This document shows positions 7,047-9,603 of a stretch of 32,000 bases of DNA, piece by piece. The first letter of the stretch is position 1. Each line of letters begins with the position of its first letter. The notes beneath the pieces were generated by a model. The model was not told the DNA's origin, searched no databases, and worked only from the letters and a program-made list of their open reading frames with translations. A program made the position numbers and the translations under genes. The stretch is from Cylindrospermopsis raciborskii Cr2010 (lineage in GTDB: Bacteria; Cyanobacteriota; Cyanobacteriia; Cyanobacteriales; Nostocaceae): NCBI RefSeq assembly GCF_003367075.2, contig NZ_CP065936.1:1680001-1712000 (forward strand). The letters are read 5' to 3'.

Positions 7047-8153
7047 TTAGTGTAAACCACTATCAAGTTTATCTAAAACAAAATGATTTCCACTCTCAAA
7101 GTGACCAAAGATTCTTTTGGCATCCTGGTCTGACCAAGCGTCTATTTCATGGGTGGAGGGAGGACGGGGATTTCCTTTGAGTGCTTTTAAGTCAAGGGAT
7201 GATACATTATATTTACCTCCTGATTCTAAATTCTTTGCTAACTGGTCTATTCTCTCGTTAATTAATATTAATCTATCCGCTGATATTCCCCTCAGACTAT
7301 CCTCAAACTTAGGTCCATAACTTACCTTTTCGCTGGGTGAAGGATGCAATTTCTCCCCATAAATCTCTTTCTTTGTCCTTCCCCACACCAAATCTCCCCA
7401 GGGAGATAAAGAAACTTCACCTCCTACCCTCATTAATAGGGTTTCTGGTACTCCAATAACGTCAGTAGTTTTCATTTCATTTGCTAGTCTACGAAAAACT
7501 TTAAGATGGTCACGTACGCTGTCTTCTACTACCATTTTCACTGGTAATCTTGGTATGCGCAACAGGTCTTTGGCTGTTTCAAAGATATAAATTGTCTCAT
7601 CTGCATAAAATGTGGCTAGGGTTTGTAAAAATCCCTGCACACTCTTGAATCCCCCAGTTAAGTTAAATATAATCTTATATTGAGATTTTCTATAACCAGG
7701 TATGGTTTTTTCAAAAAACTTTACTATATCTGATAAGGCAATTTGAAAGGAATCAATATCTTTTGTTTGCAGATCCGTCTGTCGGTTTTTATCAACTATA
7801 AAACCTTTTTCTCTTAACCATTGTTCTACTAAGGTTGCTGTCTGTTCCCCTAACCAGGTGTCAGTACAAAGCAAATAGTGAGTGTCTGCTTTCTTCTCTA
7901 ACTTACCATTATAAAGTTTAATAATGCCATTTAGCTCCGCTGACATCTTACCTGCTAACTCAAGATCAGCAGATGCTAGTTTTTCTTCTACTCTCTTGAC
8001 AAGCGATCGCAGTTTCAGGCTATCTTCTAGAGGTATGTCTTCAATGTGTTTTGCGTTAGCATGTTTACTGACTAAACCTCTTTCTTCTTGAGCTGCTTGA
8101 TTGGTCAATAAACTTGTGCCACAGGGTGAGAAAACAAATAAAGGATTTTCCAT
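7047..8153 (-). CDS. CARF-domain protein of the APE2256 type with a C-terminal RelE/ParE-like toxin-fold domain (Cami1-like candidate)
   Basis: The N-terminus [26 protein letters not shown] and [12 protein letters not shown] match the APE2256-family CARF pattern I recall. The C-terminal ~50 aa ([47 protein letters not shown]) follow the RelE-type pattern (LKG..., basic-R-I-F/Y strand, terminal GxH). The ORF track starts at TTG 8159; ATG 8153 is likelier. Confidence 0.75.
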   Translation of the reverse strand: [368 protein letters not shown]

Positions 8154-8206
8154 GATCAAGGTTTCTGGTTACAAGGGATAATTTTATAGTTTGAGGGATA
8201 GGGGAG

Positions 8207-8326
8207 GTAAGTAGGGAGGCACAATTTGTAGGATGGGTCGAGTAACCAGACCCATGGGAATGTTGGGTTTCATGCTTCAACCCAACCTACGTTTATCTTA
8301 TATTTAATTCGACTCACTCACTTAAA
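8207..8326 (+). mobile_element. MITE-like dispersed repeat copy
   Basis: gtaagtagggaggcacaatttgtaggatgggtcgagtaaccagacccatgggaatgttgggtttcatgcttcaacccaacctacgtttatcttatatttaattcgactcactcacttaaa. It occupies the csx1 / CARF-RelE-like intergenic gap. Confidence 0.6.
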
Positions 8327-8334
8327 CAAGTTTG

Positions 8335-9603
8335 TTAAGAAAGGGTATCAGCAATGGTCTTTAACTCAAGTATAATCTGAGCTGCTGTTGTTTCTAAACT
8401 TTCTGCTTTTTGAGGACTCTTGTTCATACCCACATGGGCAATATCATTGCGAATTTGGGTTAACTTACCCCATTCTAGGGAAAACAAATTAAAATCAGGT
8501 AGTTTTTCAAATTCATCATCCCAAGGGGAAATTAATGTTATTTCTTTGCCACGAAGTTTAATTTGTCCATTATTGAGCGCATTCTCTACCTGTTTTCGCT
8601 GGTCTTTATTTAGTGGATCCTGTTCACCCAATCGATATGCTAAAACGGAAACTAGCCATTCCCTTGCTAAGGTCATAGCTTGCACAACTTGATGTCTTTT
8701 TATATACCAATCTATTAGTTGAAATTGTAATCTCAGTCCTTGAGCTAAATTTCCACTATTAGTGGGATTTTCTAGGGCAAATTGTCCATATTCCTGGGTT
8801 AATTTTTGGGAAATCAGTCCAAAAGGTTTAGCTCTTTTATCAAAACTACTCTCTGCTTTTTTGATAATTTCCTCTAATTTTGTGGTTTCTTCTAAAATTT
8901 CTACAGGACGCACAAGAGCTATAGCCAGAGAAATTCGATTAATGATGTCAGCAGTATCTTTAAATTCTCTAGCTAGAGGTCGTAGGGTTGGATCATCTCT
9001 TTTTTCATCGTTAGAAATAGTATTTTTTAACAGCTCTGCTAAGGGGGATCCATCACCCACTTTGACAAATCTATCTGCGGCAGCAAGCCAGTCTAATAAG
9101 CTGAGCATGGGCAATAAATCATAGGTGGGGGTGTCTGGATTTTGAGAATTAGACTTAAAAGCTCCATATAAGACGCCTTCAATTTTCACCTGTTTTACTG
9201 TACGTAGGTAGCTAATAGCTAATAAGGCAATAACTGGAATGGAACGGAAACTATGGGTAAGGTCAAAAATAACGCGATCGCCCTCGTTTAAACAATTAGT
9301 AATTTTATCAAAAATTAACCAACTATCATCCAAAGAATTACTCTCGGGAATATCAAAAACAGGCTCTAATTTAACGGATTTATTAGCTAGTTGTTCTTGT
9401 AATCCTTGCCAATTAGATATGGTTCCGTTTCTGGGGGGGTCATTAGCTACTGTGGGTGTTAATAATACATACAATGTATCAGGTTGATAAAATTCAACCA
9501 GGGCTTCCTGAAAAAATTTGGTCCTTACTGCTTGACTAGTGGTGGGATGGATATAATTTGTCTCAGCGTAATTACTGTTGCCAAGAAAAGAAATAATTTT
9601 CAT
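8335..9603 (-). CDS. csx1: Csx1-family CARF-HEPN ribonuclease (TM1812-like)
   Basis: The N-terminal MKIISFLGNSNY, DLTHSFRSIPV and YGAFKS form the Csx1/TM1812 CARF pattern. A C-terminal HEPN Rx4H motif is present in QIRNDIAHVG. It lies downstream of the cmr operon. Confidence 0.85.
   Translation of the reverse strand: MKIISFLGNSNYAETNYIHPTTSQAVRTKFFQEALVEFYQPDTLYVLLTPTVANDPPRNGTISNWQGLQEQLANKSVKLEPVFDIPESNSLDDSWLIFDKITNCLNEGDRVIFDLTHSFRSIPVIALLAISYLRTVKQVKIEGVLYGAFKSNSQNPDTPTYDLLPMLSLLDWLAAADRFVKVGDGSPLAELLKNTISNDEKRDDPTLRPLAREFKDTADIINRISLAIALVRPVEILEETTKLEEIIKKAESSFDKRAKPFGLISQKLTQEYGQFALENPTNSGNLAQGLRLQFQLIDWYIKRHQVVQAMTLAREWLVSVLAYRLGEQDPLNKDQRKQVENALNNGQIKLRGKEITLISPWDDEFEKLPDFNLFSLEWGKLTQIRNDIAHVGMNKSPQKAESLETTAAQIILELKTIADTLS

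Follow-up and report, generated by a model that had tools for sequence, protein, structure and literature searches.

The stretch of DNA analysed here (the window) comprises 32,000 nucleotides (nt) of Cylindrospermopsis raciborskii Cr2010 (NZ_CP065936.1, positions 1,680,001 to 1,712,000) and carries a Cmr-type CRISPR system with genes for two effectors that have CARF sensor domains. The open reading frame (ORF) listing and the profile searches place cas10, cmr3, cmr4, cmr5 and cmr6 in a co-directional block on the minus strand, followed by csx1 and then by a gene for a CARF-RelE protein; the CRISPR array diverges from cas10. We class the locus as an ordinary type III-B (Cmr) CRISPR-Cas system of the kind that signals through cyclic oligoadenylates (cOA). 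We think it quite likely that this is a cyclase-only Cmr system whose cyclic tetra-adenylate (cA4) would activate both Csx1 and a Cami1-like CARF7-RelE effector, with a ring nuclease built into the latter. An earlier note, made from the letters of the window, had proposed the core of this reading, a cyclase-only Cas10 feeding a Csx1 HEPN RNase and a CARF-RelE protein of the Cami1 kind, and the family, alignment and fold evidence given below bears it out. The features concerned, with lengths in amino acids (aa) and E-values (E), are these:

13532..15796, minus strand: cas10/cmr2, 754 aa; full-length match to the PADLOC Cas10b model PDLC02053 (1309 bits), Pfam Cmr2_N and Cas10-Cmr2_palm2
12564..13535, minus strand: cmr3, 323 aa; PADLOC Cmr3, E 1.2e-11
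11788..12567, minus strand: cmr4 (Cas7-type RAMP backbone subunit), 259 aa; Pfam RAMPs, E 5.4e-22, and PADLOC Cmr4, E 2.1e-18
11326..11778, minus strand: cmr5 (small subunit), 150 aa; PADLOC Cmr5 "gr11 new subfamily", E 3.4e-74
9770..11284, minus strand: long cmr6-like RAMP protein, 504 aa; PADLOC Cmr6 PDLC01212, E 2.4e-16, and Pfam RAMPs
8335..9603, minus strand: csx1, 422 aa; TIGR02221, PADLOC CARF2--CARF_HEPN and identity to SyCsx1/Slr7061
7047..8153, minus strand: CARF-RelE gene (Cami1-like, SyCsm6-type), 368 aa plus stop; PADLOC PDLC01934, AlphaFold2 and Foldseek, and identity to SyCsm6/Sll7062
7539..8141, minus strand: CARF7 (APE2256-type) sensor and predicted ring-nuclease domain of the CARF-RelE protein, residues ~5-205; PF09651, E 1.7e-33, with conserved S14, E73 and K170
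7050..7331, minus strand: RelE/ParE-fold (BECR) C-terminal domain of the same protein, ~95 residues, ~275-368; isolated model with Foldseek, and conservation
16775..19165, plus strand: CRISPR array with 33 copies of the repeat GTCTTGACCTTCATAAGAAGGAATAGGTATTGCGAC, diverging from cas10; repeat-family search, tandem repeat finder and reading of the sequence

Both effector genes are intact minus-strand ORFs downstream of the cmr operon, at the coordinates that the earlier note had given them. The mechanical ORF of the CARF-RelE gene runs 7047-8159 from a TTG start and would encode 370 aa; from the ATG at 8153 the product has 368 aa, as does a 99%-identical NCBI protein from Cylindrospermopsis curvispora, and 7047..8153 is therefore right. 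Measured against Raphidiopsis brookii D9, the ratio of nonsynonymous to synonymous substitution rates is 0.31 for the CARF-RelE gene and 0.24 for csx1, which indicates purifying selection on both. The plus-strand ORFs at 7117-7320, 8420-8692, 8762-9124 and 9239-9487 were treated as spurious, because they lie antisense to strongly conserved coding sequence of csx1 and the CARF-RelE gene.

Cas10 keeps the GGDD motif of the cyclase and has no HD nuclease domain, as had been noted before. The motif (residues 536-539, 14180-14191) lies inside the Pfam Cas10-Cmr2 palm2 match and aligns with the GGDD of P. furiosus Cmr2 (PfCmr2). In the alignment, residue 79 of the window protein stands opposite residue 243 of full-length PfCmr2 (4w8y) and opposite residue 48 of Cmr2dHD (3ung), a construct from which the HD domain was deleted; the Cmr2_N/D1 region is thus preceded by 78 residues here against 242 in PfCmr2. 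With just 78 residues ahead of the first cyclase-like domain, an HD domain would not fit. Profile scans of Cas10 with Pfam, NCBIfam and PADLOC gave no HD family match, and HD dipeptides occur at residues 245 and 715 only, neither of them N-terminal. In a survey of 1113 type III loci, a recognisable HD domain was present in 39% of the Cas10 proteins and a cyclase in 92% (PMC11229360); a Cas10 that is HD-less and GGDD-positive is the majority state among type III loci. An assignment of this Cas10 to the III-Bv Cmr2 type of Synechocystis was rejected; the one close relative on a plasmid, with 48% identity, comes from Synechocystis sp. B12 and not from plasmid pSYSA.

The protein encoded by csx1 has a CARF domain of the TM1812/DxTHG class (TIGR02221, cas_TM1812, E 9.9e-47; TIGR02549, E 3.4e-10) and matches the PADLOC CARF2--CARF_HEPN model over residues 1-419 (E 4.6e-118). 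Its DxTHG-like motif reads DLTHS (9250-9264), and its HEPN motif (R-x4-6-H), RNDIAH (residues 385-390, 8434-8451), aligns to IRNDLAH of the active enzyme SyCsx1 (Slr7061) of Synechocystis pSYSA, with which the window protein shares 55% identity along all of its 422 residues. The profile matches, the motif and this alignment agree with the previous description of 8335..9603 as a Csx1 with a CARF and a C-terminal HEPN domain. SyCsx1 was shown biochemically to be a cA4-dependent, cytosine-specific RNase (PMC9676260), and from this relative we infer that the window Csx1 would also be activated by cA4.

The second effector has an APE2256-type CARF domain followed by a RelE-like part, as the earlier note had said of 7047..8153. 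The Pfam Cas_APE2256 match covers residues 71-205, TIGR02619 and the PADLOC CARF7 models match too, and the PADLOC model PDLC01934 (CARF7--CARF_RelE) matches from end to end (E 1.9e-137; from residue 7 to residue 370 in the 370-aa ORF, and from position 3 to the last, 359, in the profile); the other PADLOC CARF_RelE models match the CARF part alone. More than 1700 homologues were detected, and the best 120 listed, with 52-99% identity, come from Cyanobacteria, Chloroflexota, Methylococcales, Acidobacteria, Leptospiraceae and other groups. The gene stands two genes 3' of cmr6 on the same strand, and its relatives in two other loci (L002 and L010) adjoin cas10 or cmr genes. In the full-length AlphaFold2 model, made from an alignment of 43 homologues from several phyla (mean predicted local distance difference test score, pLDDT, 89), a middle domain resembling a winged helix-turn-helix (wHTH) lies between the CARF and the C-terminal domain. 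The top Foldseek matches of this model in the PDB are Cami1, over the full length (8phj_X, E 3.2e-14; 8phb, E 6e-14; 375-387 aligned columns), followed by the CARF7-wHTH (Crn1-type) ring nucleases Sis0811 and SSO1393. The entries 8PHB and 8PHJ are Cami1 (CARF-RelE) of Allochromatium vinosum, reportedly described by Mogila et al. (2023, Science 382:1036).

Cami1 is thus the best full-length structural match, and it has in common with the window protein the three-part architecture and the association with type III CRISPR systems. The CARF domains of the two are related in sequence (E 1e-4 with a single sequence, 9e-12 with a profile). The differences are that identity in the structural alignment is about 19%, that the RelE domain of Cami1 has no detectable sequence similarity to the C-terminal domain of the window protein, and that the latter falls under a separate PADLOC subfamily model, PDLC01934. 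Moreover, ribosome-dependent RNase activity was shown for Cami1, whereas for the SyCsm6-type subfamily it is predicted from the fold. SyCsm6 (Sll7062) is the closest characterised relative and is 43% identical to the window protein over the full length, the C-terminal domain included. Together with SyCsx1 it is encoded by an adjacent gene pair on pSYSA of another cyanobacterium, Synechocystis sp. PCC 6803, which is orthologous to the window pair, and like the window that locus has no stand-alone ring nuclease. The Synechocystis genes are convergent and lie beside a type III-D module (Ding et al. 2022, the system of PMC9676260), whereas the window pair lies 3' of a III-B cmr operon, with both genes on the same strand and copies of an element resembling a miniature inverted-repeat transposable element (MITE) between the genes.

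To test the RelE claim without the CARF part, the C-terminal domain was modelled alone (residues 269-368, 38-sequence alignment). The isolated AlphaFold2 model (pLDDT 87.5) has a beta-alpha-alpha-beta-beta-beta topology, and its 22 best Foldseek matches in the PDB are all RelE, YafQ, HigB or ParE toxins (M. jannaschii RelE, E. coli YafQ, E. coli RelE, HigB2 and S. pneumoniae HigB, then ParE proteins). The probability is about 1.0 for the best matches, and the eight best reach template modelling (TM) scores of about 0.44-0.60; both values drop among the ParE matches. The C-terminus therefore models as a RelE/ParE fold and not as a wHTH or other non-RelE fold, the outcome that the earlier note had named as refuting it; the wHTH-like domain is present in mid-protein. 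The earlier description of a RelE/ParE-like tail of about 50 aa stands as to the predicted fold and not as to the length, which is about 95 residues (~275-368). Five residues of this domain, K323, T334, D338, W340 and R347, are invariant among the aligned homologues, and three more, H335, E336 and H351, nearly invariant; in most of the sequences the chain closes with "LH" (H368 here) or has a His two or three positions before its end. Judged by topology, strands 2 and 3 and the C-terminus would carry the conserved polar residues. RelE, YoeB and YafQ place their catalytic residues at such positions, and a residue set of the His/Glu/Arg type is of the kind used by the RNases YoeB, YafQ and HigB.

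An exhaustive search of 1.84 billion representatives with a profile of the C-terminal domain gave 408 matches; the best 150 of the 408 are all CARF fusions of about 360-390 aa or fragments thereof, with no stand-alone toxin among them that would bridge to RelE. As modelled, the domain is a family-specific, fold-level member of the RelE/ParE superfamily. It has the fold of the type II toxin-antitoxin RNases (M. jannaschii RelE, 3BPQ; E. coli YafQ, 4Q2U; E. coli RelE, 4FXE; HigB) and differs from them in having no sequence similarity to them, in being, by the best 150 of the 408 matches, essentially restricted to CARF fusions, and in having no antitoxin, control being through the fused CARF sensor. 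No antitoxin gene lies beside the CARF-RelE gene, in agreement with the earlier note; the flanks consist of MITE and leader-remnant sequence, and the small ORFs there are only repeat-derived or antisense.

The earlier note had also seen no ring nuclease. Among the window ORFs, PADLOC, NCBIfam and Pfam indeed identify no stand-alone one (Crn1-3, Csx15/16/20), but the CARF7 domain itself keeps S14, E73 and K170, and its 43%-identical relative SyCsm6 is a ring nuclease for cA4 and cA6. S14 ends the GTS motif at residues 12-14, E73 lies in SAEL and K170 in NLTGGFK; the serine (GTS), the glutamate (SAEL) and the lysine (GGFK) are invariant or nearly so across the 43 homologues. S14 aligns to S12 of Sis0811 and K170 to K169, and these two residues, the serine of GTS and the lysine of GxK, are those that were mutated in Sis0811. 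The family profile matches Sis0811 with E 4.4e-14 over a region spanning the GTS and K169 motifs. In structure, the CARF7 and the following helical/winged domain of the model superpose on Sis0811 (PDB 7PQ2) and SSO1393 (PDB 3QYF) with E ~5e-11 and a target-normalised TM of about 0.61-0.68. Crn1-type enzymes are stand-alone regulators, whereas the window protein has the additional RelE-fold domain of about 95 residues. SyCsm6 degrades cA4 and cA6 to An>P products and thereby attenuates SyCsx1, and its K167A substitution abolishes the degradation (PMC9676260). Cami1 too is reported to have ring-nuclease activity, and a separate ring nuclease is present in 30% of Cami1 loci (PMC12409355). Since the Ser, Glu and Lys residues are kept and both SyCsm6 and Cami1 are active, the off-switch most likely lies inside the window CARF-RelE protein.

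The pairing of the two effectors has precedents. In the survey of 1113 loci both Csx1 and Cami1 are classed as cA4-activated, Cami1 being an enzyme that cuts mRNA in the ribosomal A site; Csx1 occurs with Cami1 in 54 loci and alone in 284, and Cami1 occurs in 135 loci in total (PMC11229360). A Csx1 homologue lies within a few kb of the CARF-RelE gene in at least 4 of 13 related loci (L001, L002, L006 and L009).

From this evidence we propose the following mechanism. A Cmr complex of Cas10/Cmr2, Cmr3, Cmr4, Cmr5 and the long Cmr6, with CRISPR RNA (crRNA) from the adjacent 33-repeat array, would bind a complementary transcript of an invader. As Cas10 has no HD nuclease domain, its output would be that of the GGDD palm cyclase, and the product is most likely cA4. 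The cA4 would bind two dimeric effectors, the products of the genes directly downstream, at their CARF domains; of these, Csx1 would degrade free RNA at its HEPN site (RNDIAH) and the CARF7-RelE protein would cleave ribosome-bound mRNA by means of its RelE-fold domain. The CARF7 domain would slowly cleave cA4 and so reset both enzymes; the CARF-RelE protein would therefore be the second effector and, at the same time, the built-in ring nuclease of the locus.

Several observations weigh against this proposal, and most concern the C-terminal domain. The Foldseek E-values of the isolated domain are modest, from 4.6e-3 (3bpq_B, the best) to 0.36. A Pfam scan of the last 100 residues gave no match at E<=10, and the profile of the 38 homologues, run against all PDB sequences, gave chance matches only, with no Cami1 RelE domain among them. 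The phmmer and profile matches to Cami1 8phb stop at residue ~260, short of the C-terminal domain. An hhalign comparison with E. coli RelE (a query sequence checked as 100% identical to 4v7k) gave a probability of 0.2%, and the canonical RelE catalytic residues do not map by sequence onto the domain. With no sequence similarity to Pfam toxins, PDB chains or E. coli RelE, the RelE assignment rests on the predicted fold. In addition, SyCsm6 showed no RNase activity on total naked RNA, with or without cA4 or cA6, in a ribosome-free assay (PMC9676260). The choice of cA4 as the most likely product of this Cas10 is drawn from the effectors only. Finally, no cmr1, cas6 or cas1/cas2 was recognised within the 32-kb window by the ORF listing and the family searches; the route of crRNA processing and spacer acquisition is not evident from the window.

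These points lend themselves to other readings, the first of which we regard as possible, if unlikely: the CARF-RelE protein would be essentially a ring nuclease that switches Csx1 off, and its RelE-like domain would be inert or a docking or regulatory module. This would agree with SyCsm6, which degraded cOAs and attenuated SyCsx1 without RNase activity in vitro (PMC9676260), with the name "CRISPR-associated ring nuclease" that some close homologues bear in NCBI and UniRef, and with the stand-alone ring nucleases that follow Cami1 as the best structural neighbours. The catalytic residues of RelE that cannot be aligned by sequence also fit such a role. However, few parts of the protein are as conserved across phyla as the C-terminal domain, with K323, D338 and R347 invariant and H335, E336 and H351 nearly so, and a conserved polar set of this sort is hard to reconcile with an inert appendage. 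Stand-alone Crn1 enzymes work without such a domain, the RNase assays of SyCsm6 contained no ribosomes, and Cami1, which has the three-part architecture in common with the window protein, is a ribosome-dependent RNase (PMC11229360).

Less likely again, we believe, is that the C-terminal domain of the SyCsm6 type is not an A-site mRNase in the style of Cami1 but a BECR-fold enzyme of its own, whose active site would be of the His/Glu/Arg type and whose substrate or mode of docking to the ribosome would differ, and that csx1 and the CARF-RelE gene form a portable cassette acting in trans with a Cas10 encoded elsewhere. The first part of this idea comes from a domain that occurs essentially only in fusion with CARF7, is highly conserved across phyla and has no similarity to the RelE domain of Cami1 or to toxin families. 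The second part comes from R. brookii D9 (L001, ACYB01000036.1, 365-11107), where the pair sits by a split DruE-like SNF2 helicase (365-4246 and 4294-5610) with no cmr genes within 10 kb of it.

The earlier note had supposed that each of the two effectors may answer to a cOA species of its own. On such a reading Csx1 might respond to cA4, for example, and the CARF-RelE protein to cA6 or cA3, and the two outputs would be triggered independently. In its favour stands SyCsm6, with a CARF domain that bound cOAs of several ring sizes, cA6 among them, and cleaved them (PMC9676260), and type III complexes can produce mixtures of cOAs (PMC11229360). Yet effectors with different signals almost never share a locus among the 1113 surveyed, and Csx1 and Cami1, with their 54 co-occurrences, are both of the cA4 class (PMC11229360). 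SyCsx1 itself is activated by cA4 (PMC9676260), the solved Cami1 is bound to cA4 (8phj), and Sis0811 and SSO1393, the nearest structural relatives of the CARF domain, are cA4 ring nucleases. As co-located effectors nearly always share cA4, we hold separate tuning to be very unlikely. Least credible of all is a ParE-like domain that poisons gyrase or binds some other protein target, for although ParE toxins stand at ranks 9 and 15-22 of the fold matches and fold alone cannot separate RelE from ParE, the eight best matches are all of the RNase type (RelE, YafQ, HigB), His, Glu and Arg are conserved on the sheet with a terminal His in most homologues, Cami1 is an RNase, and ParE toxins are without the RNase catalytic residues (PMC11980606).

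The earlier note had further observed that MITE copies part the effector genes from the cmr operon, and this is so; it had drawn from the copies that the regulation of the two genes may be independent. An element of about 100-125 nt follows the stop codon of each of cmr6, csx1 and the CARF-RelE gene, always in the same orientation:

9656..9779, minus strand: MITE-like copy that follows directly on the cmr6 stop codon and lies upstream of csx1; repeat families D2-D4, copy alignment and core count
8208..8331, minus strand: MITE-like copy that separates csx1 from the CARF-RelE gene, an insertion when compared with R. brookii D9; copy alignment and D9 comparison
6949..7051, minus strand: MITE-like copy starting at the CARF-RelE stop codon; copy alignment and core count

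The element contains the hairpin core GTAGGTTGGGTTGAAGCATGAAACCCAAC, and there is a further copy, inverted, at 6389-6475; in the window the 29-nt core was counted 15 times, where 0 would be expected. The csx1 and CARF-RelE pair is 92-93% identical in DNA to that of R. brookii D9, in which the element of about 118 nt between the two genes is missing and the spacer is 58 nt; the copy in the window is a real insertion polymorphism relative to D9. Homology to D9 ends at the outer MITE copies, on one side at window position 7045, which suggests that csx1 and the CARF-RelE gene move, or are retained, together as a cassette. We rejected the elements as obvious promoters or terminators, the consensus scans having shown no enrichment over shuffles and no match inside the elements on the gene strand. 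The same hairpin core is held by each unit of a tandem array at 20592-21860, which has 9.8 copies of a 130-nt unit with 99% matching, an unusual head-to-tail amplification.

Just 3' of the CARF-RelE gene, at 6812-6915 on the minus strand, lies a cut-off, inverted copy of the CRISPR leader, whose counterpart is at 16648-16719. Over 72 nt the two are 97% identical, and the copy is fused directly to the final ~21 nt of the repeat (AAGGAATAGGTATTGCGAC), with about 70 nt fewer than at the real leader-repeat junction. The cas block is therefore flanked on both sides by inverted leader sequence, and the copy is probably a remnant of a rearrangement or an orphan half-repeat. In the array itself, one spacer (17545-17585) holds a perfect internal direct duplication of 20-21 nt (TTCCTCCTCATGAACAGGAG, twice).

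Elsewhere in the window, two overlapping short ORFs on the minus strand at 5537-6128, of 97 aa (with a P-loop-like "HAPRQVGKT") and 110 aa, resemble the halves of a frameshifted or truncated ATPase gene and are probably a pseudogene. The region 21944-31677 resembles a defence-island neighbourhood. It begins with a PADLOC PDC-S03 candidate protein (21944-22510, E 2e-80) and goes on with minus-strand ORFs of 983, 443 and 676 aa (23161-29517) that look, judged from their translations only, like HsdR, HsdS and HsdM of a type I restriction-modification system. Two paralogous genes (29547-30629 and 30757-31677) have C-termini with varying numbers of 21-, 42- and 63-nt coding repeats. A tRNA of 92 nt lies at 1041-1132 on the plus strand (Rfam, 62 bits), overlapped by a spurious minus-strand ORF of 79 aa (894-1133).

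Csx1 with Cami1 is an already catalogued combination of two effectors, and the cyanobacterial orthologues have already been characterised in Synechocystis; as HD-less Cas10 proteins are also common, the finding is correct and already known, and it matters little beyond correct annotation. The gap that it touches is the ribosome-dependent RNase activity predicted for the widespread SyCsm6-type CARF-RelE subfamily, which concerns the subfamily at large and is nothing peculiar to this locus. Nevertheless, the locus would be a clean example, in a bloom-forming and toxin-relevant cyanobacterial genus, of multi-effector cA4 signalling in which an RNase acting on free RNA and one directed at translation are joined by a built-in off-switch.

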